Source of the DNA: Yuukianura sp. NJ FZ-2021 | Taxonomy: Eukaryota | Assembly: GCA_046563655.1 (NCBI GenBank) | Contig: CM102285.1 | Location: forward strand, 5,022,001 to 5,086,000 | Length of the DNA: 64,000 nucleotides | Reading direction: 5' to 3' | In this document: one piece after another, positions 28,074-47,012 of the stretch | Numbering within the stretch: the stretch's first letter is position 1 | How the letters are laid out: every line of letters begins with the position of its first letter | Notes under the pieces: generated by a model | The model's database searches: none | The model's input: only the letters and a program-made list of their open reading frames with translations | Told to the model about the DNA's origin: nothing | Translations under genes and position numbers: made by a program

Positions 28074-30128
28074 TATGAGGGGAGAAAACCCGCAATATTC
28101 CTCGACAGATTTACATCTGGATTTCCTGATGTGTGAAATTTCACACATCTGGAAATACAAAAATACAACTGAAATCCAGATGTGTGAAATTAAAAACATC
28201 TCAAATTACGAAAACACAACAGGAATTCTGATGTGTGAAATTTGAGATGTGCGAAACCAAAACCGCACCAGAAATCCTAACGCTTCGGTTTGAGATGTAT
28301 CTCGCCTCATATGTTTTTTCTGATGTGCGAAAGTCTCGCGACGTCTCGATTTCTCATGTCTGAATTCAGATGTGTTTTTGTGCACAGTTGGTTGAAGTAA
28401 ACCAAGAGTGCATCAGGTGCAACCACGAGGGATATCATAAGTCCATACCAATCCAACTTGTTACCACTCGTTTGCTAACAGTTTACTTAATTATATTAGC
28501 ACCTTATATTAACCAATTAATAATAAACGCCTATTACATTCACACTTCTTGAATCTTCATTATCGGTAGATAATGGCATGTAACGCCCTACGACGCTAAA
28601 CAACTGAAAAACACAACTGGAGCAAACACTGCCGCTCCGCACCAGACTACTCTCTGAGTCCGCAGACTCTCAGACCCAAATGACCCCAAACAATCACCAC
28701 TGCTCACAACTACATCGGCGAATAAATGTATGAAATATATTTATTCGTCGAGAATAAAATATATACAACAAAACCTCCGTCTCACGCAGAGACCAAAAAC
28801 CGACTAACTAAAACCTAAACTGAATCTCTCCTCTCTCTCTCTCTACCTCGCCACATCTCAAATCTCCCGCGGCTCATCTCCGCATCTCTCCCTAGCCTAA
28901 CTAATCGCCGGAGTAGCAGACGCCAACACATTCCTCTCCAGATGATGGGTGTCGAGCCTGACGACCATGGCCGACATCCATCAGCGACAACTCCCAAGGC
29001 GACTGCGACTCTCGAATCTCTGCAACTCCGTGGCCATCATCCTCATCTATGGACATCAGCGGAGTCTTCATCATGGTAATCGTCAACCGCAGCATCCGAT
29101 TCCCCCGAGCGCTCCATCCAAAACGTCAGGCACTTCCACATTCTTTTTGTCACTCACTAAATCACTTTTCATTTGAATGGAAGTTGTCAAGACAACTCCC
29201 TTTGTACCCACATCATCACATTCACTTTTCAAATTCATGCTCGGCAAAATTCTTGCTAAAAAACTAAGTCCACTACACTGCCACAAACTTTCAGCACCTC
29301 CTTCCTTCACTTTACGGGACAGTGAGACCCTCGGCTGAACTTGTAGACAATGAGCACAACTCAAACACAAATAAGCGGAGGCTAATAAATTGACTCCCAT
29401 TAAGTGCTACAGATTCTGAGTTCCACCTTCCTTCACTTTACGGAACAGTGAGACCCACGACTCAGAACATGTGCACAGAAAACCACTGCACTTCACCCAA
29501 CTTATAACCAATAATTTCACATCATCACATTTGCACAAACTTGTAACTTTTTCAACTTTTAAATTTTGAGGGAATGGGACCCCGAACAACACAATGCATT
29601 TAGCACAAGAAATGCTGCGAGCCAGCAATGCCAGGACAACGATCTTCATTTCAATTTTAAATTCACTTCCAACTTCTTCTTTCTTCTCAATTAGTACCGC
29701 AGCACTATAACACTCACTTTTTAAAACTTGAGTAACGCCGCACTTCAGCACTGCCGGGCTGACGTTCTCTATAATTTTAACACTTAGCACTAACACTTTC
29801 CGTAAAAGCTCACACTTTGGAGCTTGAGCAACGCTGCGAGCCTCGCCGATTGTGGCTGGGACAACGTTCTCTGTCTTGGTAACTTTCATACCGAAGACTT
29901 TCTGATACATCTTAATCGAGACGTTAGGATTTCTGTTGCGGTTTTGGTTTCGCACACCTCAAATTTCACATCAGAATTCCTGTTGTGTTTTCGTAATTTG
30001 AGATGTGTTTAATTTCACACATCTGGTTGTCAGTTGTGTTTTTGTATTTCCAGATGTGTGAAATTTCACTCGTCAGGAAATCCAGACGTAAATCTATCGA
30101 GCAATATTGCGGGTTTTCTCCGCTCATA
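28074..30128. mobile_element. Non-autonomous element with ~210-bp TIRs and 6-bp TSD (CTCAAT)
   Basis: 28074-28282 is the reverse complement of 29922-30128. CTCAAT occurs at 28068-28073 and 30129-30134. Confidence 0.85.
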
Positions 30129-31499
30129 CTCAATGACATCGTTTATACGTTGAGTGATGACGTTGTGAGGGAAATAAAACATATATCGAAATGAGTTTGA
30201 TGCGCATTTGAACTACATGAATCCCAGCCACCACAGAAGTAGCACTTTCCCGCCAAATCACAAATTGTCCCGGTTTGTGAGCGGTAACTACTGATGCGTT
30301 TCCCAAAGTGCGCAGTAGTAAGAAACAGAAAATGAAATGCATTTTCTCAGTTTTGACTTTTGAGTGGGTGGCGCACGAATATTAATTCTTTTCTTATAAA
30401 AATGATCTGGGAAAAAACTGTTTGTTTGTTTTTTGGACAAATTTCGTTTACTATGTTCGCATAAAAACTGATCGTCTAAATCCCAGCAGTTTTCGTTTTC
30501 TTAGACAAGTTTCTCTATTCGCGGCCTTGGTTAGTATTTCGGCTGGTTGTACGCTGTCAGGAGAGTGATGTTACGTGACTGCTTTTTTTTGTTTATAAAA
30601 TTGCGTATGTAGTGATGGCGGATGACAATTTGCTTTGTTTTGTCTTGATATTCGGGGTTTGTGACAAGTTTAATGGTAAGCTTTTAGTCAGTTTGGACGA
30701 TAACTGGCTGATTGAGTTTGACCACATTCAGCCAAAACGTGTCTTGCGCAGATAGAATATTTTATAGCATGAGAGTGAGCAATGTACTCTACTTCAATGC
30801 CTTATAATGCAATGCACGTTTGTCTTCTTTTAGGCAGATAATGGGTGCATCATTTATGCTGCAGAGACAACCCAGTGGTTGACTTCCTTATGTTGATATT
30901 TGAGCCGTAATCTCCGTCAATTTAACCATACAATGTCAAAGGCTGTTGTTTTCTGCGTTCTTTGGACAACTTTGCCTTTCAGGTATCTTAGTATGTTTCT
31001 AGCGGCTTCACAATGATCTTTGTCATAGGCGCCGAAAAAGTGTAGTAAATAGTGAACATTGTATGCTTAAATCAAACCATAACATTTATATCGGTTCCGT
31101 CTTGTTTCGGCATCGAACAGCGTAAACCTGACTTAAAGTTCCGTAATTCGGTAGTTTTATAAATAATCGCTCGTATTCCAAACTTTTGCGTTGAGGTTCG
31201 ATTTTGGCAAACATTTTTGTGTACACGGTACGAACCATACATTCATTGGTTCAAATTTTATTACGATTTGTTGTTTCGGGACAAATATTGAACTCTGACC
31301 GATATTGAGGTAGATTTCATTACTCATAATTTAATCTAACCTATCAATCCTTACCGCTCAACAAGCACTGCTCCAGATTCGAAGAACCCCACTTTCTAGT
31401 TGTTCAAAAAAATTTTCATCAACCCTTCAGGTCACCGCTTCGTTTTTTAAGAACTTTCACGCAGTAGGTTTGGCGCTTCAGCAGGTATTTTGCTAGTTG

Positions 31500-33800
31500 A
31501 GGCGTGTTGAATCAATGATTGCAAACTATGCGATGAAGTCTAGAATTTGACCTACCTGTCGCGATTGTTCGGAGGAATTTTAGCTTCAGTGACGAGATGG
31601 AGGCAACGAAGGATATCCAGATACCTAAAGAAAAATTTTTTTATTATGTTACTTTACGGCATCCTGTTGATTTATTTAGTTGATTTACATATTTCTTGCT
31701 TTGACTTCAGAAAGCAGTCTCCAGTATTTAATTTTTTGACCAGTGCAAAATGTTTTACCAGAACTTGTATTTGGTATCCGCGGCAGTTCACAACTTTTAC
31801 ATAAAAGTTGTATTTGTTCTTCAGGAGATTTCAAAATATGCAACATTTGTTGTATCTGGTTAGGATCCTGGTGTCTTCAAGCTGATTTCGGGAATTGGTT
31901 CCTTTAGGATGGAAGCACGTGCACAAATCGCAGTATCCTTTTCGATTTCAAATTGGATGATTGACTTAGTAAAACCCCTAGTTGGGCTAGTGCGTTAATT
32001 CATGACTGTCTAACACAACTAGAAACAAAGTATTTGTGTAAATTGTTCTTTAGATGTTCCTGAATATCATAATTGTTTCTGTATTTTGCATTTCTCAAGT
32101 GACCACGTACTTCGGTCAAGCGAAATCGTCAAGCCAGTTATGCTTTTAAAAAAGTGGATGTGCCGAGGTTTCCCTGTAGCAAACTCGGATTGTGCTGGCA
32201 GAGTTTGATTTATTACAATTTCAAAATTTGCCCTTATTTCTTACAGATAACATAAGCTCAAATCAACAATATTATCGTGATATTTTGCAACATTTTTGTC
32301 GTACGAGCAATGTCGTCAAACTTTTATAGCTCAGGGTGCAGTTTTTTGCCAGGATTGTTTTTTTTCGACCATGCACAGTTTTGGTGGCTGTTTCAGGAAT
32401 TTGAAAGTTTAAAGCAATAGAGTCGTCACATATTGTAGAGGTAACATTATCTATGAGAAAGTTATCCGCCTCACAATCATTTCCAACATCGTGAGTTGGA
32501 GTTACTTACCAAAATGACTCGAATTGGAAAGGCAAGTTCTCAATGTCGCAAAGAGATAAAGTATACGTTTCCTCACCAGCGTCCTTGCAGCCTGGAGTCA
32601 GTGTATGCCTACAGTTGAGTAAAGCCTGTCAAGCAGTGGTGAGCAAAGGGTAATCCCAATTACAATTTCGCCTATACACCACCATGTCTATTGCAGTTTC
32701 TTTAATCAAACTGAGTGTTGTCTCAGTGATTTTTAACTTGTCAACCCTGTTGTTGCAATTTAGTGGCAGTTTAAGCAATAGAAATTAATTCTGGAAAACT
32801 TGGGATTATGCAAAAGAATAACCGCGTATGCTTTGCTCCCTTCGGGAAGAAACTTACATAGAGTACAAACGTGAACTTGGCCTAGTGTTTGCGAATTAAC
32901 AAAATAAAATACATTTGGCGCACAACGTTCAGCAAGTAGCGATAAGACCAATGAGAATGTTTGCTTCCAGATCTGCGACAGTCAGCTTTGCATCTTTCAT
33001 AGGCATTTAATGTACGTCAACAGAGGTAAAGCTTCCTCTGATTCCAAAATACTACGGGAGACGCCTAATGGTGTACCACAGTCATTAGCAGTGGAATTGT
33101 AGTAATCTGAAATGCTAATGGCCAAGTCTGGGCAGACTAGTTGTACCGCAATCGAGAAACAGATGCCATTTGTTTTTTCAAATCACACGTTCCATTTTGT
33201 AGGCCCGGGAACCGCCAAACCAAAAGTCCACGATTCGTCCAACAAGACAACCCCTTGAAAGGACAAGGATCTTGCAAGTCTGGAAGTGAAGCTGCTCGAA
33301 CGTATCCTGAATAAGGATCATGTTCCATTGGCACCAGAGTGATAGAGTAGTTAATAATTCGAACCCCCCATGGTTCCTTGTTGCCAAATTGTGCGTCATT
33401 CGTTACTAGATAATTGCGAGTGGATAAAGTTGTTTCATTGTGAATCGACATAGGGTAGCCATCTGGATCGGTCCGTGTTAAGTGCATATGAATGCATTTA
33501 CTTGTTGTCAAAGCTTGTGGAAAGAAAGTCAAACTGTTTGTTTTTGGTCGGTTCGTATTAAAGTTTTTTCACTTCGAGAACACAATAGTAGCTTTGTACA
33601 TATATATTAGGGGAGACGCCCACTCCAAAGAACCACGGAAATCATTGCGGAGTCTTTCAAATCATATGGACAGCTCTCAGGCCTTGTCCGCAGCATGCCC
33701 AACGTCCATATGCGTGTGCCATTCGTTGGAGTCAATAACTCAGGAATTTGAGTTAGATCCGTCAAACAAGCATAATGGTCAAAAGTGGTCGTAACCAAAC
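31500..33800 (-). pseudogene. Degenerate cysteine-containing viral envelope/glycoprotein-like ORF (possible class III fusogen)
   Basis: ORF pieces 33607-33798 and 33137-33532 (LTTSKCIHM...INYSITLVPMEHDPYSGYV...DPCPFKGLSCWTNRGLLVW) continue after a frameshift as LVCPDLAISI...NDCG. It has several N-glycosylation sequons. The lower boundary is approximate. Confidence 0.45.
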
Positions 33801-34698
33801 GGATCTCCGCGATGACAACCGTATTTTAAAAATATCTCATGTTCCAAAAATCGTGAGTCAATGTATTGTGTGACCAAATCCCCCCCCCCTAGACGTTTTT
33901 TTTCTGCACTTTTGTGCAGCTTTTTATATTTGGTTTTTGGCCCATGCTCACTGTAGGTTTAGATGCTTAATTAGTGTTTAAAAATAATTTTAAAAAATAT
34001 TTTGCGGTTTTGTGGTTTGAGTTCAAGTACCTACCTGAAAATGAGAGATGAAATGAAGAAGTTACATTGTGAAAAAAATTCATAACTGTCTAGCCGTCTC
34101 TGGAAAACATGAATCAGAGAATGAGATCGTCATTTTCTCATGCACTCTGAAAGTGCAACTAGGTCATGTTTACATTTGTGACATAAAGGTCATGTTTGTT
34201 TTTACTAGCACTCACAGAGATGTTACTACTGTTCGCTAACTAATGAATCATTATTACACATTATCGTTCACCACCTATTCGTTTCAAACTGCACTACATC
34301 ACGTTCACAGCAACTTGCGCGTATGCCTGTTCCCTATCGCTCGGACGCTGTGATACCCAAATCGGTTCTATAAAGAGATTGTGATCACAGCACGGGTACC
34401 TCGGTGCAACAGCTCTGGTTACTTGATAGTCATCGATACCGGAATCGTTCAAATGCTTCCTTTATCATTCAAATTTATTGTTAAATTCAATGCACTGATG
34501 TACTGATCTTCCGCTTCTTCGCCACGCATCAATTCTATGCCAAACGTCCACTTAAATTGACAAAATGTTAGTCAGTTACGCATATCAGAAATAGTTAACA
34601 TCATTTACCTAAACTTAGAGTTTCTTAATTTCTTACCCATGTGATGGCTGTGTAGACAACAAGCAGAGGCTCGGCACCCATTATTGGCATTTTCGACT

Positions 34699-35418
34699 TT
34701 ATAGAAAACAGCATGAGCTTCCTATTGATGGTGCGTGGGAGTCTGCGCAACCATGCTTCTCGAATCGACAATCAATTACAACGCAAGGCAATTGTATAAT
34801 TTTCGGCAACTGCAAAAAGTGGTTGAACTTTGCCATCATCCTTTTTTCAAACTCTGCTTTTTTGGTCATGTGAACGATTTCATTCGAGGGAGTTTGCTCC
34901 CAGCAACCCTCCAGAATGTCGACCAATGACATATTCTTCTGCAACTCACGCTTCATGAACTGTTTCAAAAACATTCGGTATTTACAAATTGTTATTTCTA
35001 CAACTAACTGCTCTCTACGCAGCATTATTCTCACTGCATCGTTGATACAAGGCTTTGTGAAGTTTGACATTGTCATGTTCACATAAGACTCGGCCTTGCT
35101 TAACTCTTTTTGCATCGTCAACGCCAATTTTTGAAATGTAATGTACTCATACTGGTCGTTCATGCTGATGTCAACACCCCTGTCGTCTTCCAGCATCCGG
35201 TGAATGACGGCAACTGGCTTTAGGAGAAACGTAACAGGCGTACCCGTGTAGTTGTTACTGATGTCCTCCTTTCCTTTGTTCACGACGTCTACAACACCTG
35301 CGTGGGTGTGCACACTAGATGGGTTATGAAAGTCTGTGAACAGTTTGATATCGAATACGCGCGAGGCTGATTCAGTTTTAGCCCGTACTCCGCCTGAAGC
35401 CCCCGCAGCAGTTGACAC
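34699..35418 (-). CDS. Orphan ORF of 239 aa with a Cys/His-rich C-terminus, unknown function
   Basis: Long ORF in otherwise stop-rich DNA, ending CVVIDCRFEKHGCADSH...CC. A possible splice donor lies at ~34637. Confidence 0.4.
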   Translation of the reverse strand: MSTAAGASGGVRAKTESASRVFDIKLFTDFHNPSSVHTHAGVVDVVNKGKEDISNNYTGTPVTFLLKPVAVIHRMLEDDRGVDISMNDQYEYITFQKLALTMQKELSKAESYVNMTMSNFTKPCINDAVRIMLRREQLVVEITICKYRMFLKQFMKRELQKNMSLVDILEGCWEQTPSNEIVHMTKKAEFEKRMMAKFNHFLQLPKIIQLPCVVIDCRFEKHGCADSHAPSIGSSCCFL

Positions 35419-36769
35419 CGTCTTGAGCGCGCCATCTCACGTTAGATTTCTTCGATTTTATTCACGTCGAACGAATTCAGTTTTGTGTCACGAAATGACG
35501 CCACCACGTTCATCCCAAACACGACGCTGACACGAAAACTAAACTATTCAACGGAAAATGAATGCTTTTAAATAACGGATTAATGACCTAGAGGCGACAT
35601 GCGCACCATTTGCAACAGCTAACTTAATTTGCTGCCTCATCACGTTGCTTCTGACAACTGACTCAATTGCAGGAAAGTTGGTGGACCCTCAACGGCTCGA
35701 ACAACGGTGAAGACTGCAGCGGTTGAAGCGACCGAAGTAGAGATAAAATTGTGCGTGTTTTAGAGAAAGCGGCCGAGTTGGCCAAGTGCCTACTGGTTTA
35801 CTAAGAGCTAAGTAAAAGCTACCGGACAACTGACTAAGAGGTGGGACTGCCGATCCTCTATTTATACCTAAAGATTAGAAGATCTGGACGTGCAAGAACA
35901 TGATCTTCGACCTCGTTAACTAATAAACATGTCTAACTAATTTACAATTTGTAACTACAAAGTTACATAGTCATCATCTTCCTAGTCTTTTTTCTAATCT
36001 ATTCTCTAATCAATTTCTTAAGAAAAGACATAAACTTTGTCTTAAGTTTTGAATTAATAAAGCTAACTAAGTAGATTTTAGAGTCACGTCAGATCACTCA
36101 TGGCATGACATTTACTGTTGATTGCAAGAAAGTCGTAAACTTTCTCGCAATCAGGACAGCTGATAAGGGTGATCGGTCAGCACCCTGGGGTCGTCTCCTT
36201 CTGATTAGTGAACACGCGAAAAAGGAATGAACTAATTCATTCCCTTCTCCCGTGTTCCAGTGAGAAATCTGCCCATCAATACTTTAAGATTGATTGGCAG
36301 CTTTCTCTAGTGTTACATCTTCCCCAACTTAGTCATGAGCCGTCCTCGGCGATAACATGTGTGACAAAAGTCACGATTTCCGCGTGCCGTGATAACCTAG
36401 TAGCTAAGACGCGATAAGCAAAGTGCAAGAAGTGCGTAGACCTGCAAAAACATGATACAACTTTCCGTCTAGGACATTAAAAGATTAAGAGTACTACACC
36501 AGCTATCGTAAGCCTCCCCTCATTGATTATTCACTTGTAGGGTACATAACATCAGTGCCTATAATCTACTAACTTATATACAGAAGTCTTCGATCTTCAA
36601 TCCCAAGGAGTTCGCTCTGGAAAGGGGATAGGGTGTCGGTTGTGCCAAGGGGTCCTGGAAGGCGGAGGGGGTTGTCACCTGGAGGGTGTAGAACTTCCTT
36701 AGTTCCTCGTAATGTGGGGCGTGGTGCTGCATCTGGTCGGGCGGATCCGGAACTCTTCCAAAAAAGGAC

Positions 36770-38199
36770 TCAGGTCATCTGCTTCTGCATCGTGGCCAAC
36801 TGCTGCTCCAAAATTCGAACTCGCTCTCGTAGAAGGGAACGTTCGTCTCGATCGTGTTCCCTGCCCTCTCTGTGTCTTTGGTTCCGCTCTCTGCTGGCTT
36901 CGCGATTCTCGTGGCGTTCCTGGGTCTTCGGTGTTTTAACTTGAATAACTTCCGGGATGAATTCCTGGAAACGACGTTTCCCAACGGCCATACAGCTTTT
37001 GGAGGAGTGCAAAGGATTTGGGACCATGGATTTGTCCTGCGTCTCCTTGATCTTGGATGTCGTTGGGTGAAGGATGGCATCATTGAAATCAAACTTGATC
37101 TCGTATTCATGCATCAGAGATGACAAAATGCGTTCATAGGCATCTGGTGGGATGCCTTTGGGTTTTGGGAGGCGACGAAATTTGCGTATATTACTCCACG
37201 GACAAACTCGTCGTTACTGCATCGCTTCCATACTTTAATATCGGCTTCGAACAAACCGATAGGACAGTCAAGATTCCGAGCTATAGTCACCACTGTCGCA
37301 TGAAGACATTGTAACCTGGTGGAGCATCCCAGATAGGTTGATTCGAATACAGGCCATGGAACAGAGAGAGCCACGTCTTTTTCCACGTCTAACCTAACCT
37401 AACCTAACCTAACCTAGCCTCCGGTCAATGATTCGTGTTGTCTGGTTCACGAAGTCTTGTCGTAAGGAGTCAGTTATGCCTAGCCGAACGTTCAGCAGTT
37501 GCTCTGCAAGATCTTTCATCAGCTGGAAGTGTTCTATAACATAGGAGCGGAACTGAGTTTCACAAACTGATCGGTAGTCTACTACTGTCACATTTTCATC
37601 GATGTACTGCTGACACAATGCTGCATAACTGAAGGATGTTGTAGAGTCGGTGATTCCCATGAGTGGAAGTTTAGCAATACCCACGATGCCCGCCGCAGTA
37701 ATGCCAAAAATTCTCGAAGTAATGTTTTGAATTGGCGTTCTCTTTGATATGTAATCTTAGCGATGTCACTGGATTCCATCAGATTCCTCAATGGCTCTTG
37801 CAGCTGTTTGGCGGGCTCTTTCGCGTCGATGACAAAGCCCAGTTCTGGAGTCATGATGGCGATATGTGTCGTTTCCCCAAGATACGTCTGTTGGTTTTGG
37901 AAGGCGTAAACCACCATCGGCTTTCGATTGTAGACCTTTCTTATATTTGCGAGGAGGGTTGTTTCCTCTCTGATTATCTCTGGTAAAATCTGCGGTCTGT
38001 CGGACCTCAAAGGTAAGTGCAAGAACTTATTATGTAGAGTAGAATTGAGCCGCATCTCCATCATCTCTTTCCCCAGCTTGGGTTGAATGATCTCAATCTT
38101 GATATTTTTCTTATGTCTAATTTTATAATATTCTGTAGGTGTTAGTAAGTGCTGGTAAGTAAATAAAATTTTCTGTTCGGTCGGACGATGTAGAGCCAT
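36770..38199 (-). pseudogene. Fragmented ORF with an EXD1/Egalitarian-like DEDD 3'-5' exonuclease-fold domain and a charged coiled-coil C-terminus
   Basis: HIAIMTPELGFVIDA...LRNLMESSDIAKITY...LLREF(GI)...SYAALCQQY matches the DNA_pol_A_exo1 pattern. Four adjacent ORFs (37588-38199, 37409-37684, 37114-37386, 36770-37126) can be linked by frameshifts and one repeat insertion. Confidence 0.6.
37389..37413 (-). repeat. (TTAGG)5 telomere-type repeat inside a coding frame
   Basis: Five perfect CTAAC units on the plus strand. Confidence 0.9.
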
Positions 38200-38207
38200 T
38201 TGAGCTG

Positions 38208-38765
38208 CTACTTAAGAACGGATCGCTGTTCCTGTGAATGTGATAACCCTAACGCGTGTCCAATTTCGTGAACCATGACCGAAAATACATCTACTCCTCT
38301 CTTACTGGGTGTGGTAGTCCAGTTTTCTGCTGCTTCAAAATAAATAACTCCGCCTAACCCAACATTCGGGTAATAAACATGTGCTAGGACCTCGCCTACG
38401 CCGTCAAAAACCCTGGTGTCACAATGATAACCTTTTGCAAATTGAATTGCAATGTCTACTGACTCATTGACCCTTCGACTAAACGTAAAATTAGAAATTT
38501 CTTCCCATTTTTGGAAAGCCAAGGCAAAGTTTTCTAAGACCTCGTCCATAATCATAGAGTTTGAAATGTCTTCCTTAACGTTCCATGTTAATTTGGTTGT
38601 CTTCCATTTTCTATCCAAAATTTGTCTCTTTCTCCTTCTCATAGGGTACTCCATCCCTTCGTGACAGCAGATGGTGTCCTCATTCTCGTAACTAAGAATG
38701 GTGGCCATTATCGTTGTTGTACAGATCATCATCACCTTAACCGAAATAAATCCTATCCTTGTCAT
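38208..38765 (-). CDS. Intronless matrixin (M10A) metalloprotease, C-terminally truncated
   Basis: Hydrophobic N-terminus, furin-like RRKR, then KWKTTKLTW, AFQKWEEISNFTF, DIAIQFAKGYH, FDGVGEVLAH and zinc motif HEIGHALGLSH. It stops at the Met-turn position (SVLK*). Confidence 0.88.
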   Translation of the reverse strand: MTRIGFISVKVMMICTTTIMATILSYENEDTICCHEGMEYPMRRRKRQILDRKWKTTKLTWNVKEDISNSMIMDEVLENFALAFQKWEEISNFTFSRRVNESVDIAIQFAKGYHCDTRVFDGVGEVLAHVYYPNVGLGGVIYFEAAENWTTTPSKRGVDVFSVMVHEIGHALGLSHSQEQRSVLK

Positions 38766-39163
38766 TCTAGGAAGATAAATAAAAGAAATTTTAACAATTC
38801 CTATTTCCTAACCTTTACGTCCAAGATGTATAAAGTAGGTGACCCATCAATCTTCGGGTCAAGCACCCCTCGATGTGATTTCTGATTAGGGTCAGACCAG
38901 TTCCTCTCACAATCCCAAAATCTTAGAGTCTCTTATGCCCTCTTCCGGAGGCATGGGGTATAAAAAATAAACATTGACAGCGAGCCTTAGGCTACTGACC
39001 CGGTCAGATGGCATGGATTGTGACTGTCAAAACTTCACGTGTGACTGTCAAAACAAAACTTCAATTTGCTGCATTTTTTCTTGCAATGCAGAAACTTGAT
39101 TGGAATTCTCAGTTTGCGTTTCGAGAACTCCTTCCAGGATGTTAATGTCCCGTTGATGCGCAA

Positions 39164-39685
39164 TTAGATTGTTGGCTTCTTCAATTTTTTTGCCATATTT
39201 AAAAAGTCCATGACAGTTGTTTGTTTCATTAGTGAAATTTGACTCAAGAATGCCGGCCGGGCATTCTTGATCAAATATTTGACACGCTTTGCCTCATCCA
39301 TATCAGGCTCGGCTTGTTGAATGAGTTTAAGTAAATCATAAGTGTAGGATTCTACATTTTCCATAATCTTTTGCTTCGTATCTTTATACCTTATTTCCGC
39401 TGAAACTGAATCTACAGTTCCAAAGATTTTCACTAAGTAATCCCTTAGTCCTGTGAATGAACCCCGAACTTGGTTTCCACAAGGTACTTGTCGCCTCAAT
39501 TGGTGTAGAAAGGTGCGGATCCACGACTCTGCGGTGCCATCGAGCTGGCGTCACAGAGTCGCAGCCATTTTGTCAGTCTCTAATCCACTGGCATTAAATG
39601 CAAGCTCAAATTTAGTGAGGAATAGAAGGACATCCTCATCTTTGGTCCCCGAAAAACGAGATAACTTTACTTGGACTTTGGACAT
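39164..39685 (-). pseudogene. Ty3/gypsy Gag capsid (Arc-like) with one in-frame stop
   Basis: MSKVQVKLSRFSGTKDEDVLLFLTKFE...L*RQLDGTAESW...KQKIMENVESYTYDLLKLIQQAEPDMDEAKRVKYLIK. Confidence 0.85.
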
Positions 39686-41176
39686 GTCTCGGTATGTGTA
39701 AGAGTGTTAGTAATAATGAGAAGTATCTATACCATAATCAGCTCCTTGAACACGAAAAAAATATCCAAGGATTATGACAGAAATACCCGATGACGTTGTA
39801 ATTAAGCCGTCGGCTATCGTATCCGTCGTCTTCCAGTCGCAAATTTATATCCGATCTGGCACTAAACGTGGTAATCCAGAGGAGAAACTGCTAACGACAC
39901 TACAACGCACAGATCTTACAGGGAGTGTCCCAAATTGAAAAATTGAAGGAGAAAGTTCTGTGAAGGTTCAGGGTGACGTATAGTATGTTGATTGTACCCA
40001 ATGGATGTCAGTAAGTGTTGGTTACTAGAAAATTAAGATTTAAAATGAAGTGCAAATATCAACAAGATATTAGGAAAAAGCCGTCTCCAAAGTATTGCCC
40101 AAACAAGCCGTACTAAAGAAATGGCCCCGATTTAATGCGTGCGCGTGAACTTTATAGATTCGTGGCTGACCTACTTCGACCCCACCCAAAAGTGTGTACC
40201 TAAAATTTGCATTCTAACTTCGCAAGTTACCATAAAGAGGTTTGAAGGATCTCCAGCTCAAGAGCTGGTTTTCCTGTCCCAGTTTCTAAAGGATGTGGTT
40301 ACCCATACGCAATTACTTTACTGTGGTTGGCAAACGTTTTCGTCCTCCCAGACCAGTTCCCCTCACACCACGTGCAAAATTTTTTCTGGCCTACTTTCGA
40401 TTTGCACGCGCAAAGCTTGTTTCTTGTCTTTTTGGAGGATGTGGGATCTTAGCCACAGAGCTGTAAACTCTTTAAATTGTCAATTACACTTCGTGCGAGT
40501 CCTCACGAAGCATCTTAATGAGGAAGTGGTGACCTAAATCATACAAGAAAGTGCGTCTCTAGATATCCGACACTTTGTAGCTAATTAAGTATGGGTTACC
40601 AATTAATGAGGCTTTGCTACCCCCTTACATTTTCACTGTTTTACTCCTAATAAAATTTCACCCCCAAACTACAACGGTCACCAGCGGACTGCCACTGGTG
40701 ACCCTGACCTATTGTGGGTTAGGGGATAAAAGAAACTTGTTATGACGAGTCATTTGGTCACGTTGTAGCCAGTGTCACTCGGAGGATCGTGTGAAATCAT
40801 CTTTCAGGACAGTCTCCGCAAGCCACCGCCTCTCAAAGTTCTTTTCTGATTCGCCGCTACTTGGACAGACTGCCACATAATATGACGCCAATGGTGACCC
40901 TGACCTGTTGTGGATTAAGGAATGAAAGAAACTCATTGTCACGCGTCCGCTTGTCATGTCCTGGCCAGTGTCACTCGGGGAATCGTGTGAGGTCACCGTC
41001 CAGGACAGTCTGCGGATCGGCCACTCCCCTCTCAAAATTCTGTTTTTTTTTACGTTAACAGACTTCCACTCAGTGTCACGCCAGAGGTGACCCTGACCTG
41101 CTCTGTGCCACGGGATGAAACAAACTTGTCGTCACGGGTCTCTCTATCGTGTTTTGAACGGTGACACTCGGGGGAT

Positions 41177-43256
41177 AGTAGGTACAATGTCTGCACAATC
41201 TTCAAAATGAATTGATTATCTGTCAATCATCGTGTCAACACCAATATCGATTATCTGTTAGTGCACCTACCAGCAGCAGCCCTACTAGGGGATGTAGGTG
41301 ACCCCTTTTGGCGCCCCCCTTTCTCCATCCTTCTTGACTATAATACCCTACTCGTGTCGTCACCGACGTCCACCGCCCTGAATAACAGAACACCCCTCCC
41401 ATCATCAATACAACGAATCAATTAATTAATCAATTGACAACCAACCATCAAATTATTTACTTGCCAATCAGATTTTTGTTAGTCACAAATAATGGGGGGG
41501 GGGTGGCCGGGTGTAGGTTAATTAAACTTAATTAACATAATTATTCACTTGTCAATCAAATTTTTAGGAAGTCCTATTGGCCAGTGTAAAGTCGTCAATT
41601 TTGCAGGGGGCGGGGAATTTAACTATGAAGGTTGTAGAAATTAAGTCGGGTGTGTTAATTTTAGCCGGTGGGAGGGTTGTGTGTAAACTGACTTCCGGTG
41701 AGTGTTGAGGATTGGCGCTGTATCGATATTGGTCATTGGTGTAGGTGTATTTCCCTGCATTCCATAGAATAGGGAGCCCTTGAATGCTTTCCCCTTCACT
41801 TTTTTGCATAAACGTTTTGTTTCACTCTTTTTGTTTTTCCGAATTTCCTGTGCGGCGGAGTGGAGTGGAGTCAGGCGGGGTGAGGTGGGATGGAGCGGAG
41901 TGCAGTGCAGTGGAGCGGGGTGAGTGGTCCGCACGATAGTGTGGGCTTCGTTTTCCTTGCGGTTCCGTTTACCGGGGAAAGCGTTAGATTTTCTCCCTTT
42001 TAGCTTTATGGCTTAAAGTTGGCTTTGACAAAAGGTGTTGTGTGCAAACCGACTGCCGGCGATTGTGGTTGAGGGTTGTTTCGAGCTGACATTAGGACAT
42101 TGTGTAGAGTATGCAGCGTAGTGGATATGTGATTGTGGAAAAGTATGGTGCAAGGGCCTTTTCATTTCCTGCAGTTCCATCAACTGGGGGCCATTGGATT
42201 CTCTCCTCTTCACGTTAAGGCCTTAAAAAGTAGCATAGGCGAAAGCAGCAGAGGTAGCCTCCCAACTATATCACAAAAAACCGCGAAACTGGTTACTAAA
42301 AAAATGAGTATAACAGCACTCGGGGAAACTTCTTAACCACTAAACTCTGTTTCATTCTGTAAGGCTTTTGGAAGCTACTAGTACGTTGATTTTTTTTGCC
42401 GGACGGTGTACCAATGCTTACACAGTTAAGGATCAGCCTCCATTATTATTTGATATAAAAGTTTTTTTGATACTCTTTGAGTCCCAGCTTGAGCATTCCT
42501 AAGCAAGTGTACAATGAGCTTAATTGTCTCCACTGTAATCTCCGCGTCGTCTTCCAATTGAAAACGTGACCCACTTTCACTTTCATCGTCTGAAGTGTCT
42601 TCATCTTCAGACGTCGGGCCGCTTTGACTGACGAGAGGCGAAGTATCTTCCATTTCTTCCGTGGACGCATTTTCCTTTATTCCTCCTCCAACTTGCGGTG
42701 AATGCAAGTTGGTAACATGCCGTTTTACAGTGTCCTTCCTTGCAAATTGTTTTGGGCAATACGGGCAAGAAAGTTTCCCGTTTTTACCGCGTACAAAACT
42801 GGGCTTGTCTTCTGACTTTTTGGGGGCAGGAGAAGTAGGAATAACATAGTCGACATACAACGAGACAATACAAGGGGTTAATGCCGGCCATTTCGATGTG
42901 ATTTGTTTGGAATCTGGAACGTAACTGGACGAACTTGGCGGTATGAGGTGATGGGAAGCGTTTTAGTCGGGGGAGGGGGTCCATTCGGGGAAGTGAAGTT
43001 AATTCCGGGTGCGTGTAAACTCCCCAACTTAATTAAGCACCTAAGTATTAATTATGTTAATTAAGTTTAATTAACCTACATCCTAGGGTATTATACCCTG
43101 CAAGATAGAGAAAGGGGGGCCCCAAAAGGGGTCACCTACATCCCCTAGTAGGGTTGCTCCTGGTGGGTGCACTGACAGATAATCGATATTGGTGTTGACA
43201 TGATGATTGACAGATAATCAATACATTTTGACGATTGTGCAGACATTGTACCTACT
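41177..43256. mobile_element. Miniature Polinton/Maverick-like non-autonomous element (2080 bp)
   Basis: Termini 5'-AGTAGG...CCTACT-3'. ~180-bp TIRs plus a further inverted block at 41511-41543 / 43049-43081. Removing the element leaves exactly 6 extra nt against neighbouring repeat units (GGGGAT/GGATAT), consistent with a 6-bp TSD. Confidence 0.7.
42426..42860 (-). CDS. Single C2H2 zinc-finger protein with an acidic tract, inside the Polinton-like element
   Basis: CPYCPKQFARKDTVKRHVTNLH, followed by an acidic segment. The probable original ATG near 42891 is out of frame. Confidence 0.6.
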   Translation of the reverse strand: MYVDYVIPTSPAPKKSEDKPSFVRGKNGKLSCPYCPKQFARKDTVKRHVTNLHSPQVGGGIKENASTEEMEDTSPLVSQSGPTSEDEDTSDDESESGSRFQLEDDAEITVETIKLIVHLLRNAQAGTQRVSKKLLYQIIMEADP

Positions 43257-43573
43257 GGATATCGTGTGAGGTCAACGTCCAGGACAGTCTCTGCAACGGT
43301 CCCACCTTGCTCAAAATTCCGTGTTTTATTCTCCTCCACGTTAACGGACTCCCATACAATGTGACGCCAGTGGTGACCCTGACATATTGCGGGCCATGGG
43401 ATGAAAGAATCCTGCTGTGACGAGTATGGTGGTCATATTCCTGCCAGAGTGACCCGGGGGACTATGTGAGGTCACCGTCTAGGACCTCCGGAACAGTCAC
43501 TTGGTCTCTAAGTTCATTTCTTCTTTTCTATGTTATTGATATGTTAGTTTACTAAGCAACCCGACTAATGCCA

Positions 43574-43591
43574 AACCTGCATCTGGCACCA
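43574..43591 (-). promoter_or_regulatory. Putative tRNA primer-binding site
   Basis: The minus strand reads ...CTCTCA-A-TGGTGCCAGATGCAGGTT, i.e. a CA end followed by TGG, upstream of the leader and gag. The tRNA is not identified. Confidence 0.55.
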
Positions 43592-43592
43592 T

Positions 43593-44155
43593 TGAGAGAA
43601 GGTCAATGTGTGGGTTGACCTCTCCCCAGATGTGTTCCACCTCCAATCCGCAGGTGTCCACACAAGAGAAGAGATAAAGCAACACAAAGACAAAACGGAT
43701 GTGGCGTTACGAGTTTATTGCGCTGGTCGCGCCCAGGGTTCCTAAACTCGAAAAGTTTGAGTTAATTTTCGTCCAAAGTTCGTTTTTCTAAGTCAAAGTC
43801 CGTGTTTGTTCGTTCCGTGGTCCTTTGTCATCAAGGACTGCCTTACCAGGAGTTACCAGCTCGAGTAGCAAAGTCTTTTCGTATTCAGAGAATGGTTTAT
43901 AGCCTTCAATAGCATAAATGAACAGCTTGCGACTTATTCCAGCTGAGAATGTTCGTTTTCAGAGTCACTACCTACAACTGTTTTGCCATTGGACCTATAT
44001 AGTTATTTGTTAATTACTAATCAATAGTAAACATCGATGACTATGGTTTTAATGATTATTTCAGTTTGACAAACAGATGCAATGAGTAGAGAATTCCACT
44101 GCTCACATTTTTTTGCAATTTTTACTTACTTGAAAATGTGAAGAAAAATGTGACA
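43593..44155 (-). mobile_element. LTR-like block
   Basis: Ends in CA next to the PBS. TATA-like CTATAAA (~43897) lies upstream of AATAAA (~43716) on the minus strand. The TG start is at either 44105 (TGAG) or 44155 (TGTCAC). No second copy was seen in the window. Confidence 0.5.
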
Positions 44156-44499
44156 AGTCAAAACTAACTTTCGGTTAACATTACTTTGGCCGTCAGGTTA
44201 GCTAACCTCGCTTCGCTTTTTCTTTCAAAATATGAACATAAAGTTGACCTAGTTGTTAAGGTTAGGCCTTGCCCTGGTTAGGTGAACCGTGGTCAAATCT
44301 ACCTTTGACATTTCGATTAAAAATACTACCCCAGGACTAACGGAAGTTTTCGATGAACCTGAGGAATTAATATTCCTCATCTTATGTGACTGAGTCTGAA
44401 CAGGAATTTCTAATTCCGACAACGACCAACTATAGGAACTAATCTTTCTAGTACGCTTAACTTTTTTTTTTGATTTTGGAGAAACAAATTCTCCATTAT

Positions 44500-45030
44500 G
44501 GCTCGAATGAAATTCACTACGAAAGTGTAACAAGTCTCTGACATGCACAATAATCGGCTTCTTACAACTACTAATCAACTTGATTTGGTAGTTTACTGCC
44601 GAGGTTTTCTTAGTCAACACATAAGGGACCTTTCGTTTGTGGAAGTAAGGCTTGTGACAAGCTTTCATTACGTAGTGGCAAAAATTGTAGTACACCATCG
44701 CTAATGTCAAGATTAATATTCTCCTTTTTTTGGTCAAAACGAACTTTTGACCTCTCATGAGCTCTCCTAGGGTTCAAGGCAGCACGGAAGGGAGCAGCTC
44801 CCAGATTTCTAGGGAACTCATCCCTGCGATCAGTTACAGGGCAACTGGGCAAATCCCTTTGAAATGGAAGCATAGCCTCTCGCCCATGCAGTGAGTACAT
44901 GGCGAAAATTCTGTAGTCTATTGCCTGCTCACAATAAAGGCTGATGCAATCATCCCAGTTGTCCTGACTAGGAATAGCATACATTGCAACAATTTTCTTC
45001 AAGGTCTGATTACATCCCTCTGTCATTCTA
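44500..45030 (-). pseudogene. Ty3/gypsy-type integrase C-terminal half (frameshifted)
   Basis: MTEGCNQTLKKIVAMY...DNWDD...GREAMLP and a GPY/F-like PYVLTKKTSAVNYQI...IVHVRDL. Confidence 0.8.
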
Positions 45031-47012
45031 TTAGCGTGACGGAGAAGTGAAGTTGACCTTGAACTTCAGCTGCTGTTTTGCCTTTTTCACGAAGTCGGCA
45101 ATGGACTGACGACTTCTATTTATAACACTGATCTGTTGTCGGAGCTTACCGGAGTTATTTTGTCGTTGCTGGACATGAGTCCGGGTCTCAGATTGGAGTC
45201 TGAGAGGGAGAGACTGCGGTAATTTTGCGATCGACGTCACAGTTCCGCCACTTAAAAATTGCGTTCTCCGCGCGTTAAAGTGATGCGCGAATTTTTTTAC
45301 TGCAGTATCTTTCATTGCAGAAAAGTGTACAAAATTGTAGAAAACATTTTTGAACGCGAAATAGTCTAATAGGCGAAATTAACGTACGCTTAGAAAATCT
45401 TAAACTTAGAAGAACATACCTCCTAAACATACGCTTAGAAATACGCACCTTTAGAAAAATGTACACTTAAAACCGATAGGCGAGGAAAACTTAAGCGTAC
45501 ACTGGGAGCAGTGTACGCTTAGGCTAATGTACGCTTAGAATGTAATGTACAGAAATGTAGGCCTGGCATCAGTTTTGGCAGCACCCCCACCCCGCTACTG
45601 GGGGCGGGAATGGAAATTATAGTGGTTCTCTCCGAGTTCAGAGGTGGGGATTTTCTTTTTTTTTTATCCCAAAACGAATGAGTTTTATTTGCTTCTCAGT
45701 ATATGTAATAACATGGAATAATGTGAATAAGTCCAGTGTTGATGAATGTTGTATGGTAACCAACCTACCATATATGGTAGGTTGGTTAGGTTAGGTTATA
45801 ATGTATATATTATTTATTATATTACATTTGTACTATAAAACATGTACATACACATCAAATATCAGCACCTTTATTCTCATATCGTATACTGTTATACTTC
45901 GTTAATAAATATTATTTAATGATATATTAAATTATATATTCCTGACGTGTACACATCAGGGGTATTGACATACTCTGATTTATAACCATATGAAATCATA
46001 AACCTAAACTGTACATAGGTGCGATGGAATTTGCCGTATTAACTTACGGGCTGTAATCGCACCTGATAGGAGAAATTTAAGCTGAAATCGTTTCTGAAAC
46101 AAATCATACGAATGTGCTGTTTTTAAGCAATTAGATTTACTATGAAAGACACGCGAAGAAACCAAAAATGTTTCCGGTAAGATAAACCAGAAAAGACTAA
46201 TAGCCTTAACCACTTTGAATATTTTTAAAGGCGTTCAGACAATGTGTTAAGGTTTCAAATTGAAACCCGCTGAATTTAGAAATCGGTTATTCCGCCTTTT
46301 TTAGTATTTTAGAATAAAGGAATTTTTAACTTTCTCTTCAGTCCGAACAATGTTAGATACCCCAGGGGTTATGAGGCGGGATTCATTGGCCGGATCCTTG
46401 ACAACCTAGACTAACGTTGAAACAACCTCACGTTGAAAATGGTAAACTGGCGGTGTTTGTGCACATTTTGGCAAAAAGTTAAAGCTAAGGTTTCCTTCAA
46501 GTTTTGTTCAGTTTTCCGCACAAAAACCACTAGTTTACCATTCTCAACTTGATGAAGTTAGGTTATCAAGGACCCTCGACAACGTGCGAGCAACCCGCCG
46601 CTGATTACTCGAGCCGTAGACCTCCATTGCAAGTTACTAAACCATTTGGTTAAGCTTTGTTGAACCAACTTTACCTCATCCCGCAGGAGCATTTCAATGC
46701 AATAAATTAGCATATGCTGCTAATTACTAACGCAATGGGCACGTTGTTCTCCAACTGTCAAACGCTTCGCCACAGGAAGTAAAGTAAGATAGAAATCCGA
46801 GGGAATAAACATCTAGATAATAATATGTACTAGCGCCACAAATTACATTTGTCTTATCCTGCACAAATAATACAACACTATAGTATTGCGTAATGAGAAA
46901 TTTATTAGAAAACTGATTCGTACAATTACACAACTAGATAATGTCAATGCATCTATCGTCGCTAAAAAATGAATAATCCATTGAAGACTCATGAGATGAC
47001 GGAAACGCCTTC

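Follow-up and report, generated by a model that had tools for sequence, protein, structure and literature searches.

Putative matrixin and inactive exonuclease-like genes among decayed retroelement remains in Yuukianura sp. NJ FZ-2021: a possible mosaic of repeats

The window analyzed here is a 64,000-nucleotide stretch of contig CM102285.1 from Yuukianura sp. NJ FZ-2021. An earlier note had described positions 31500–44155 as the remains of one giant, possibly once-infectious Ty3/gypsy-like element, in which pol is replaced by virus-like cargo and a possible fusogen. All of the features lie on the minus strand in the order that the note gave, and most of its component calls hold good, namely the Ty3/gypsy-type remains, a matrixin protease (MMP), a putatively dead exonuclease-like ORF, and the lack of pol; it is their union in a single element that is not supported. 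The G+C content is 0.41–0.46 across 34–44 kb, versus ~0.38 in the flanks.

Reading 5′ to 3′ on the minus strand, the first remains lie just outside that interval, directly 5′ of its LTR-like block. They comprise the C-terminal half of a decayed Ty3/gypsy-type integrase (44249–45378; Pfam Integrase_p58_C, E 6.2e-6), spread over several frames, with core-like motifs and with further copies at ~85–89% identity among contigs of public sequencing runs. The LTR-like block (43593–44155) is a TG..CA unit of 563 bp, followed one base past its end by a PBS-like motif, TGGTGCCAGATGCAGG (43576–43591), which was read from the sequence, the window containing no tRNA gene for comparison. The LTR-like block and PBS noted earlier are thus present, but the block is unpaired: blastn searches at word sizes 11 and 7 matched it nowhere else in the window. 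A diverged copy in run X4 (record 27, matching 44063–44561) runs from the end of the integrase straight into the start of the LTR and, because the two are contiguous there, the LTR belongs with the upstream integrase. It looks like the 3′ LTR from another element, one truncated at its 5′ end.

Beyond the PBS-like motif is a leader (40639–43485) of ~196-bp tandem repeats, identified by repeat finding and by blastn self-matches at 71–75% identity. Its repeats (families D1 and D2) occupy 40639–41179, with one more copy at 43314–43485. The tandem-repeat leader reported earlier therefore exists, although a 2.08-kb insertion (41177–43256) interrupts it. Inverted repeats bound the insertion, with arms that match at 94% over 153 nt and at 97% over 35 nt. 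ATCC flanks the insertion on both sides (43260–43257 and 41176–41173), and a repeat unit is broken exactly at the ATCC-flanked site. Within the insertion is a C2H2 zinc-finger ORF (42962–42426; zf-C2H2, E 3.6e-4). The gag-like frame follows (39048–39706), and consists of an open stretch with one in-frame TGA (39706–39164) and a frame-shifted, coiled tail. A decayed gag-like ORF is present, as had been claimed, but its Pfam matches (PNMA, E 1.4e-3; DUF7389, 0.03; Retrotrans_gag, 0.06) all fall below the curated cut-offs, and the frame lacks a zinc knuckle. The gag stop at 39164 is 399 bp from the ATG of the matrixin ORF at 38765, in agreement with the ~400 bp stated previously.

The absence of a visible protease, reverse transcriptase (RT), or RNase H was borne out, as none of the 199 stop-to-stop ORFs of at least 40 aa on either strand of 30.5–46.5 kb matched such families (16 ORFs scanned at E ≤ 0.1 and 183 at E ≤ 0.01). 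The locus is comparable to Ty3/gypsy elements (Metaviridae), among them copies that are truncated or stand in tandem with a shared LTR: its LTR-like block runs TG..CA, the PBS-like motif is of the TGG type, the leader contains repeats and precedes a gag-like frame, and the C-terminal part of an integrase sits immediately on the 5′ side of the LTR. It differs in that the interval has no paired LTR, target-site duplication, or PR/RT/RNase H, and in that its gag scores below threshold and has the depth of a single copy, which the LTR and integrase do not.

The matrixin ORF (38208–38807) was correctly recognized, with a Peptidase_M10 match at E 5.9e-38 over profile positions 1–132 of 159. It ends 27 profile positions early, before the Met-turn. 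Its best solved relative is MMP-16 (PDB, E 3.8e-24, chain 2–140 of 169), in whose alignment GGDTHFDSDEPW of MMP-16 corresponds to GGVIYFEAAENW of the ORF. As in furin-activated cellular MMPs, there is an HExxHxxGxxH zinc site (here HEIGHALGLSHS), a hydrophobic N-terminus (hydropathy maximum 1.87, residues 20–38), and a basic, furin-type RRRKR directly ahead of the catalytic domain. Unlike them, the ORF has neither a propeptide bundle, a recognizable cysteine-switch motif, nor a hemopexin domain, in addition to lacking the Met-turn; it is almost without a prodomain, the MMP-16 alignment beginning at residue 66.

An exonuclease-like ORF (37409–38211) follows in two frames, 38211–37588 and 37756–37409, with the change of frame near 37.71 kb. 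Its ATG is 8 nt past the MMP stop, so the tight packing described earlier is real, while the DEDD fold is reached only through a single relative. The ORF has no direct match in Pfam or PDB. Among 1.84e9 protein representatives its sole relative is P0002 (E 2.2e-4; 28% identity over residues 66–168), which itself matches PF01612 (E 7e-8) and the Rrp6 exonuclease domain (E 1.4e-4), so that the fold is only indirectly confirmed. Combining the Rrp6–P0002 and P0002–window alignments, the acidic pair of the ExoI motif appears to be lost, which would place the ORF in the inactive class. Catalytically inactive animal proteins of the DEDD fold are named in one account (EXD1, Egalitarian, and Maelstrom; PMC5408684), and in them, too, an exonuclease fold goes with the loss of the ExoI acidic pair. 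They show no detectable sequence relation to the window ORF, however (Egalitarian scores E 0.32, and against P0002 only), and the exonuclease-like family differs further in having a single known relative and, in the window, a frameshifted copy.

The exonuclease-like frame ends inside a (TTAGG)6 microsatellite found by TRF (37389–37420), and TTAGGTTAGG occurs 20 times in the window versus 3.65 expected. In another copy, an insert of the TTAGG type occupies a different position. TTAGG is the arthropod telomere motif (PMC5528210, as far as the available text goes). A 32-bp run in otherwise unrelated sequence resembles the short interstitial telomeric sequences put in at repaired breaks, although those in the accessible portions of the two reports concerned are vertebrate TTAGGG (PMC7215372, PMC2246262). 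Two more open frames of 94 and 147 codons, with a basic, coiled C-terminus, lie at 36770–37398; neither has a significant family match, and their length alone is within chance. Given four frame changes and the TTAGG microsatellite insertion, this copy of the MMP/exonuclease unit is a pseudogene.

Could the matrixin belong, as a decayed copy, to a small host family of secreted MMP genes without introns, perhaps retrocopies, that is specific to the lineage? In that case one paralogue or more would still be intact and strongly expressed, and the exonuclease-like frames would belong to the same duplicated gene unit. The 5′ flank and first ~83 codons of the MMP (38559–38927) are indeed common to other, far more abundant contigs: two in X4, at an extreme depth of ~5300–5970 and with loose ends on both sides, and about three extra contigs in run X1. 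The contigs sharing this piece differ by indels of 3 nt within the ORF and of 1 nt ahead of the ATG, which favors such a family, but there are only four of these indels (n = 4) and the X4 library type was guessed. The signal-like N-terminus, the furin site, and a paralogous contig (run X2, record 12; ~81% identity) that spans 37331–38032 of the exonuclease-like region also speak for a host family. Since both ends of the shared piece are loose, however, the abundant contigs do not continue co-linearly into the remainder of the MMP ORF, and the one relative of the exonuclease-like ORF is metagenomic, with none in annotated proteomes. We consider a host family unlikely.

The same pair of ORFs might instead be a fragment of an endogenized large DNA virus, or of another compact virus-like genome, amid retroelement debris. 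Minimal MMPs exist in some insect DNA viruses. The two ORFs are intronless as well as closely spaced, the MMP has hardly any prodomain, their G+C exceeds that of the flanks, and P0002 sits on a compact metagenome contig with overlapping ORFs, flanked by a dUTPase (E 1e-37) on one side and an F-box/PRANC-like ORF on the other. Nevertheless, the window holds no viral hallmark gene, and in IMG/VR neither the exonuclease-like ORF nor P0002 has a relative, while the MMP has one marginal 24-residue match (L001, E 6e-4). No other ORF of 33.0–39.8 kb matches L002 or L003, L002 is unclassified, and the furin site is of the cellular type, as are the MMPs that give the best solved matches. A viral origin is, in our judgment, improbable.

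Between the MMP/exonuclease block and the orphan frame lies a second LTR-like block (35593–36582), delimited by eye as a TG..CA unit (36582–35611) with a PBS-like motif, TGGTGCGCATGTCGCC, after its CA (35608–35593). It contains TATAAATA at 35866–35859 and TCAGT at 35833–35829, has a contig joint at 36437/36579, and gave no further copy in the window by blastn. The orphan frame beyond it (34699–35436) is a real open frame of 245 codons (35436–34699), whose length is significant against chance; the 239 aa reported previously are obtained only if counting starts at a GTG, and the first ATG gives 165. The frame is predicted to be helical with a Cys/His-rich end, and its AF2 model has a mean pLDDT of 37.7. 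It has no Pfam or PDB match, and an Atlas protein search gave weak leads only. The orphan may represent the gag that belongs to the second LTR-like unit.

This arrangement raises the prospect that the MMP, the exonuclease-like ORF, and the 147-codon frame are 3′ cargo, in the ORF3 or env position, of a different LTR retroelement whose LTR is 36582–35611. The locus would then be a truncated tandem (ORF3 cargo, LTR, PBS, and the orphan as a second gag) that mirrors the integrase, LTR, PBS, and gag upstream. The block stops ~190 bp ahead of the TG..CA unit, a run rich in purines immediately precedes that unit, the TCAGT is ~30 nt on from TATAAATA, and a TGG-type PBS-like motif two bases past the CA precedes the significant helical frame. 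The second LTR-like block is also the most repeated part of the locus, as is usual for LTRs.

There is also a precedent: in the consulted sections of the account of bdelloid rotifer elements (PMC5408684), Juno/Vesta and Athena/Terminon carry extra enzymatic ORFs (DEDDy exonuclease, GDSL esterase, and dUTPase), and the DEDDy-type ORF3s of Juno/Vesta occupy exactly the same position. The window and the rotifer elements share an exonuclease-fold ORF of the RNase D/Rrp6 family beside retroelement parts and 5′ of an LTR-like block, as well as short telomeric-repeat stretches beside ORFs. The rotifer ORF3s, however, keep their catalytic residues (DEED) in RT-bearing elements with paired LTRs, while the window ORF appears to lack the ExoI acidic positions, has no linked RT, neighbors a matrixin, and lies in what is probably an arthropod host, and those sections of the account do not mention an MMP (PMC5408684). 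Moreover, the limits of the LTR were set by eye and the window contains it only once, no gag family matched the orphan, and RT is linked to neither the MMP block nor the orphan. In X4 the orphan unit (41) outnumbers the adjoining LTR-like block (5–19), which is the reverse of what one element predicts, and in X1 the MMP block is at ~2.8x versus ~1.2x for the orphan. A cargo of this kind is rather doubtful.

The 143-codon ORF taken to be env-like and a possible fusogen (33137–33568) failed every test applied to it. About two ORFs of at least 140 aa are expected by chance per window, and this one has no transmembrane segment, no coding-type GC1>GC2 pattern, and no match in Pfam or Atlas. Neither a gene nor a fusogen is supported here.

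Blocks of the interval differ widely in depth and in contig breakpoints across the public runs, with the proviso that unitig depths, when summed, do not equal copy numbers and that a contig break can reflect a polymorphism. In X1, where the single-copy level is ~265–300, the gag and leader bins (313) are at single-copy depth, as is the DNA around the env-like ORF, and the orphan frame is at 310. The LTR and integrase reach 800–1000 (~3–4x single copy for the LTR), 36.6–39.1 kb with the MMP/exonuclease block 680–1020, and 35.3–36.6 kb 900–1730 (3.4–6.5x for the second LTR-like block); gag and leader thus lie at single-copy depth, against ~2.5–4x for the LTR, integrase, and MMP/exonuclease block. 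Depth in X4 ranges from 0.3 to ~5900, with 0.3–0.4 over the exonuclease region, 0.6–2 over gag, 42 over the orphan, 58 over the tandem repeat, and 3559 over 38.5–39.1 kb. Contigs break at 38927–38933, between gag and the MMP block (run X3, record 19; X4 loose ends), and one X4 contig (record 24) extends from the MMP start to 39024 and so stops 24 nt before the gag tail ends. The orphan unit in X4 is a 1299-nt contig with one mismatch over 34318–35586, and ends at both of these positions with no run-on into the adjoining blocks.

These depths bear directly on the reading put forward in the earlier note, of one giant, non-autonomous Ty3/gypsy-like element that had exchanged pol for MMP, pseudo-exonuclease, orphan, and env-like cargo and had lost its 3′ LTR. 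Common strand and order, the 399 bp between gag and MMP, the lack of pol throughout 30.5–46.5 kb, and the raised G+C over 34–44 kb are all in its favor, and gene capture and extra ORFs are known in LTR elements, according to the available parts of two sources (PMC5408684; PMC13317346). But its LTR is unpaired and is tied to the upstream integrase in another copy; its gag depends on sub-threshold matches and is at single-copy depth beside an MMP/exonuclease block at 2.5–4x, with the blocks spread very widely in X4; a second LTR-like/PBS-like block sits inside the supposed cargo; and the env-like ORF is unsupported. We give such an element little credence, and a once-infectious form with a fusogen is unsupported.

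The ORFs and retroelement signals look mostly real, yet they do not look like a single giant virus-like retroelement. To our minds there is about an even chance that several decayed repeats, unrelated but all in one orientation, make up the interval as a mosaic within the TE-rich intergenic DNA of an animal, probably an arthropod in view of the enriched TTAGG motif. From 5′ to 3′ on the minus strand, the pieces would be a Ty3/gypsy 3′ end (the integrase fragment with its own LTR); a single-copy stretch with PBS-like motif, tandem-repeat leader, and decayed gag-like frame, the leader itself apparently struck by a 2.08-kb inverted-repeat DNA transposon; a ~2.2-kb low-copy unit (38927–36770) with the matrixin, the presumably inactive DEDD/Rrp6-like ORF, and the two further frames; the second LTR-like block, with promoter-like TATA/Inr and PBS-like motifs, followed by the orphan frame; and single-copy DNA in which the env-like ORF would be a chance frame. 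Nested insertion and deletion may have brought these pieces together, and the MMP/exonuclease unit may be a repeat family of its own. Against a mosaic, a single origin would account more simply for the one strand and raised G+C of all pieces, gag stop and MMP ATG are only 399 bp apart, and a contig linking gag to MMP in another copy may lie beyond the matches listed. Chance nesting or a different element, the outcome against which the earlier note had set its own proposal, is nonetheless the better fit, if not a proven one.

The compact pairing of a metalloprotease with a putatively inactive exonuclease is a curiosity of the locus. Intact members of the MMP/exonuclease family would make a secreted zinc protease together with an RNA-binding, non-catalytic protein of the exonuclease fold.

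All features of the interval 31500-44155 lie on the minus strand, and the earlier note had read them as one Ty3/gypsy-like element in which pol is replaced by virus-like cargo. The missing pol was borne out, as none of the 199 stop-to-stop ORFs of at least 40 amino acids, taken from both strands of 30.5-46.5 kb, matched protease, reverse transcriptase (RT), or RNase H, and the only integrase fragment in that region lies 5′ of the LTR-like block. ORF lengths were compared with those in simulated windows (first-order Markov, n = 40). Nine ORFs reached at least 200 amino acids (simulated mean, 0.05) and 25 reached at least 140 (simulated mean, 1.98; maximum, 6). Judged against the simulations, the matrixin frame (199 codons, plus a strong Pfam match) and the frames of 207 and 245 codons are genuine remnants of coding sequence; length by itself lends no significance to the "env-like" frame of 143 codons or to a frame of 147 codons. 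The DNA of the window is that of an animal, with host-type genes and remnants of DDE/Tc1-type transposases. Its host-type flanking regions include RFWD3-like WD40 and RING exons at 1095-2749 (minus strand) and a multi-C2H2 zinc-finger frame of 400 codons at 47013-48215 (minus strand). The stretches 29000-30267 and 28124-28242 are highly repeated (~15-fold single-copy depth in the public sequencing run X1) and hold a 51-bp tandem repeat with related copies nearby. No tRNA gene or Rfam family was matched in the 64-kb window.

The first LTR-like block, as read from the sequence, comprises 563 bp from TG to CA (44155-43593, minus strand), and one base past the CA is the PBS-like, TGG-initiated 16-mer TGGTGCCAGATGCAGG. 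When 43560-44260 was searched by blastn with word sizes of 11 and 7, no second copy was found in the 64-kb window, and the interval is therefore not bounded by two direct LTRs. Since there is no 3′ LTR, there is no definable outer flank at which a target-site duplication could be recognized, and the bases on either side of the single LTR-like block differ. Just outside the interval, at 45378-44249 (minus strand), is the decayed C-terminal half of an integrase, spread over several frames (Integrase_p58_C, E = 6e-6), the middle piece of which gave no significant match in a PDB search. In a diverged copy (record 27 of X4, a public run from organism B) the integrase end is continuous into the LTR start (44063-44561), which argues that the first LTR closes an integrase-bearing element as its 3′ LTR; at best, two elements in tandem would share it.

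The leader, delimited by repeat search and blastn, consists of ~196-bp tandem repeats at 40639-41179, with one copy at 43314-43485 (minus strand). It is split by a 2.08-kb insertion (41177-43256) that interrupts one of the ~196-bp units, is bounded by inverted arms of 153 nt (94%) and inner ones of 35 nt (97%), and is flanked on both sides by ATCC duplications; a C2H2 zinc-finger ORF (42962-42426) lies inside it. Judging from its sequence, the insertion resembles a DNA transposon of the long-TIR or foldback type. The gag-like frame extends from 39706 to 39164 (minus strand), with one in-frame TGA and a shifted tail to 39048. Its Pfam matches were all below cut-off, namely PNMA (E = 1.4e-3, 18.5 bits; cut-off 25), Retrotrans_gag (E = 0.06, 13.9 bits; cut-off 24.1), and DUF7389 (E = 0.03), and a PDB search returned nothing significant. 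A single-sequence AF2 model is helical and poor (pLDDT 50.7), and a Foldseek search with that poor model gave no match at E ≤ 0.001, the top rows being unrelated helical proteins. Contigs from X1 and another public run, X2, at reduced depth, skip 111 nt over the end of the gag-like frame (39111-39223); they represent either an allele or another copy from which this stretch is deleted.

A second LTR-like block, placed by eye from TG to CA at 36582-35611 (minus strand), separates the MMP/exonuclease block from the orphan frame. It contains TATAAATA at 35866-35859, followed ~30 nt on by TCAGT at 35833-35829, and has a depth of 3.4-6.5x single copy; two bases past its end, upstream of the orphan, is the TGG-type PBS-like TGGTGCGCATGTCGCC (to 35593). 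The orphan frame (35436-34699, minus strand) has 245 codons, with 165 amino acids from the first ATG, and gave no Pfam or PDB match. Its Atlas leads are MACPF, stonustoxin-helical, and thiol-cytolysin clusters (0.85-0.93), which have a low recognition value (1472) and are without Pfam or PDB support; the AF2 model is helical with a Cys/His-rich end, and poor (pLDDT 37.7). A 1299-nt X4 contig that ends at 34318 and 35586 is a near-identical copy of the orphan unit (one mismatch), which may be a repeat that is shared or has been active recently. This contig also has a 30-nt duplication, in frame, at 35025-35054; its depth is ~10x that of neighbouring bins. Just 3′ of the orphan stop, at 34470-34700, a short ATG-started frame is followed by AATAAA, and the frame is broken by an ~85-nt intron-like stretch (GTAAGA ... 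CTGACTAAC ... TTTAAG).

Copies elsewhere were examined through the contigs of the public runs, and the figures that follow rest on the contigs listed; summed unitig depth does not equal copy number. In X1, depth was 313 over the gag-like frame and leader (single-copy, ~265-300) and 310 over the orphan, 800-1000 over the LTR and integrase, 680-1020 over the MMP/exonuclease block (36.6-39.1 kb), and 900-1730 over 35.3-36.6 kb. In X4, the library type of which is a guess, depth was 0.6-2 over the gag-like frame and leader, 0.3-0.4 over the exonuclease region, 3559 over 38.5-39.1 kb, 42 over the orphan, and 58 over the tandem repeat. Stretches that X4 leaves uncovered are not counted as absent. 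Among the contigs listed, breaks occur at 38927-38933, between the gag-like frame and the MMP block, and such breaks can be polymorphisms; X4 record 24 reaches from the MMP start to 39024, near the gag tail. The X4 orphan-unit contig stops at its ends rather than entering neighbouring blocks, and 76% of the X4 contigs aligned to the window continue into unlike sequence. A single bounded element, as the earlier note had it, is improbable in our view, given an unpaired LTR that elsewhere is joined to integrase, the unequal depths, the contig breaks, and the internal second LTR-like block. The likeliest reading, to which we give roughly even odds, is that the interval is a mosaic built up by repeated insertion and deletion within a TE-rich region. 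Such a mosaic would comprise the 3′ end of a gypsy-type element; an old gag-bearing remnant, into the leader of which a DNA transposon was later inserted; a copy of the MMP/exonuclease unit; and another LTR-type unit.

The possible env or fusogen ORF, which would need signal, fusion, and transmembrane segments, was not supported. The frame in question (33568-33137, minus strand; 143 codons) is of chance length, reaches a 19-residue hydropathy of at most 0.46 and so has no hydrophobic segment, and has zero Pfam matches and no usable Atlas match; we do not accept it as a fusogen. It sits in single-copy DNA, as judged from the run contigs, and the GC1>GC2 pattern of the other frames is missing from it.

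The MMP/exonuclease block begins with the matrixin (MMP) ORF (38807-38208, minus strand), which matches Peptidase_M10 with E = 5.9e-38 and 130.7 bits (cut-off 24) and belongs to this family by homology of the catalytic domain and by its HExxHxxGxxH motif (HEIGHALGLSHS). The best solved relative is MMP-16 (E = 3.8e-24). The N-terminus is hydrophobic and an RRRKR site is located immediately ahead of the catalytic domain; the ~45 residues upstream of that site include cysteines, and no cysteine-switch motif is recognizable among them. The M10 match spans positions 1-132 of the 159 in the profile and ends at position 140 of 169 in the MMP-16 chain, where a stop follows, so that the domain ends short of the Met-turn. 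Where MMP-16 has GGDTHFDSDEPW, the window ORF has GGVIYFEAAENW, a stretch that includes the position at which a histidine serves the structural zinc. The possibility, suggested by eye, that the missing C-terminal end is the start of the 207-codon frame, making the two one frameshifted ORF, gained no support from phmmer or Pfam.

A word-based homologue search with the MMP, at near and longer lengths, gave zero matches, which, as the outcome of a word-based search, is weak evidence. In X4, two of the contigs listed cover 38559-38927 at a depth of ~5300-5970. Relative to the window, contigs that share this stretch have 3-nt indels within the ORF (38635 and 38754), and their indels ahead of the ATG (38780 and 38869) are of 1 nt; these sizes, with n = 4 only, hint at coding constraint in MMP paralogues. 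We consider it rather unlikely that the block comes from a host family of secreted MMP genes without introns, as one of its decayed members.

The exonuclease-like ORF starts 8 nt past the MMP stop and consists of two frames of 207 and 115 codons (38211-37409, minus strand). No direct Pfam or PDB match was obtained, and a word-based homologue search again gave zero matches, with the same weak force. Using HMMER over 1.84 billion representatives, a single match was found (P0002; E = 2.2e-4), with 28% identity over residues 66-168. P0002 in turn matches PF01612 (E = 7e-8, 32.9 bits; cut-off 23.6) and the exonuclease domains of Rrp6/EXOSC10 (E = 1.4e-4). In P0002, V and C stand where Rrp6 has the D and E of ExoI; the residues of the window ORF at these columns are likewise non-acidic, so that the D.E of ExoI is lacking. 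The name "pseudo-exonuclease", given in the earlier note, is fair in that the ExoI acids are lost; a DEDD fold (PF01612) would be ascribed to the window ORF only transitively, in two steps by way of P0002.

P0002 is encoded on a 3-kb metagenome contig (L002) of tightly packed, overlapping ORFs, together with a 289-aa ORF of no known family, a dUTPase (E = 1e-37), and an F-box/PRANC-like ORF. L002 (1-3041) and a second metagenome contig, L003 (1-1907), present a compact overlapping set, in which the dUTPase is fused to a C-terminal half without known family and F-box/PRANC-like ORFs occur; their source is an unclassified virus-like genome or a compact eukaryote. When all frames of 33.0-39.8 kb were compared with L002 and L003 by tblastn, the exonuclease-like ORF was the sole match. 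The block could also derive from a large DNA virus, part of which became endogenous, a reading that we judge improbable: no viral hallmark Pfam families were found in the neighbourhood, and the IMG/VR search, which gave one match only to the MMP (24 residues of L001, E = 6e-4), contained no relative of the 207-aa ORF, P0002, the first ORF of L002, or alignment A1.

The exonuclease-like frame enters a (TTAGG)6 run at 37420-37389 (minus strand), which supplies its stop. Beyond it, two more frames (94 codons and 147 codons), with a basic/coiled end, extend down to 36770 (minus strand); neither belongs to a Pfam family, and the 147-codon frame had no significant PDB match. A contig from X2 (~81% identity, 24 gap letters) covers 37331-38032, taking in the exonuclease-like frames, the TTAGG site, and the beginning of the frame that follows. 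Thus, these parts co-occur in at least two copies, which indicates that the TTAGG run is an internal insertion and not the end of an element. TTAGG is the arthropod telomere motif (PMC5528210). The window contains 20 occurrences of TTAGGTTAGG as against 3.65 expected, an excess that fits an organism with TTAGG telomeres; sites include 5195, 7748, 7761, 9367, 10057, 37389-37420, 45786, 53976, and 63154, and in a public-run contig another genomic copy has a TTAGG-type insert at 36362/36367. Short runs of the telomere motif seem to be scattered among the repeats of this genome. The window copy of the block is broken, with changes of frame near 38.21, 37.71, 37.40, and 37.2 kb and a matrixin that is short by the last 27 profile positions. 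The block itself is a genuine unit, present at low copy number.

Intact members of the unit would be expected, from their domains, to make a secreted, furin-processed zinc protease and, as a second product, a non-catalytic, probably RNA-binding exonuclease-fold protein. The latter, as predicted, would be comparable to EXD1, Egalitarian, and Maelstrom, which are discussed in PMC5408684. One reading is that, in a lineage of arthropod LTR retroelements, the ~2.2-kb block (38927-36770) is an accessory module at the ORF3 position, carried by the second LTR-like unit and seen in the window as a truncated, decayed tandem copy, in which a secreted, furin-activated matrixin would be paired with a non-catalytic, RNA-binding protein of DEDD/Rrp6 fold. 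The reading is attractive in that ORFs for DEDDy exonuclease, GDSL esterase, and dUTPase are borne in this manner by rotifer Juno/Vesta elements and Athena/Terminons (PMC5408684). However, the depth pattern is unfavourable to such cargo and the LTR boundaries were placed by eye. In addition, the rotifer DEDDy-type ORF3 lies inside an RT-encoding element with defined ends, whereas the window has no RT and only an unpaired LTR-like block 3′. We hold the accessory-module reading to be unlikely.

Each of the parts belongs to a known kind, whether gypsy remnant, inverted-repeat DNA transposon, short interstitial telomeric run, matrixin, or inactive DEDD fold. The literature searched, within the text accessible to us, describes no matrixin beside an exonuclease-fold ORF, be it in a retroelement or in another repeated unit; nor did that on matrixins or metalloproteinases and retrotransposons, gene capture, and arthropod endogenous viral elements, in the parts available, report an MMP inside a retroelement. 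The MMP/exonuclease unit is only putatively mobile.

On present evidence, the interval serves mainly as a caution: TE debris whose pieces adjoin on one strand can be mistaken for a giant composite element, and a PBS-like motif can follow an LTR that is in fact the 3′ LTR of an upstream element. Its residual value lies in the pairing of an MMP with an inactive exonuclease in an intronless two-gene unit that has almost no relatives in 1.84 billion proteins. If the accessory-module reading is true, the unit would be an arthropod counterpart of the rotifer DEDDy/GDSL extra ORFs and would include the first retroelement-borne MMP, perhaps for passage through tissue or basal lamina. As retroelement cargo, it would add a matrix protease to the accessory enzyme repertoire of LTR retroelements and extend that repertoire beyond rotifers.
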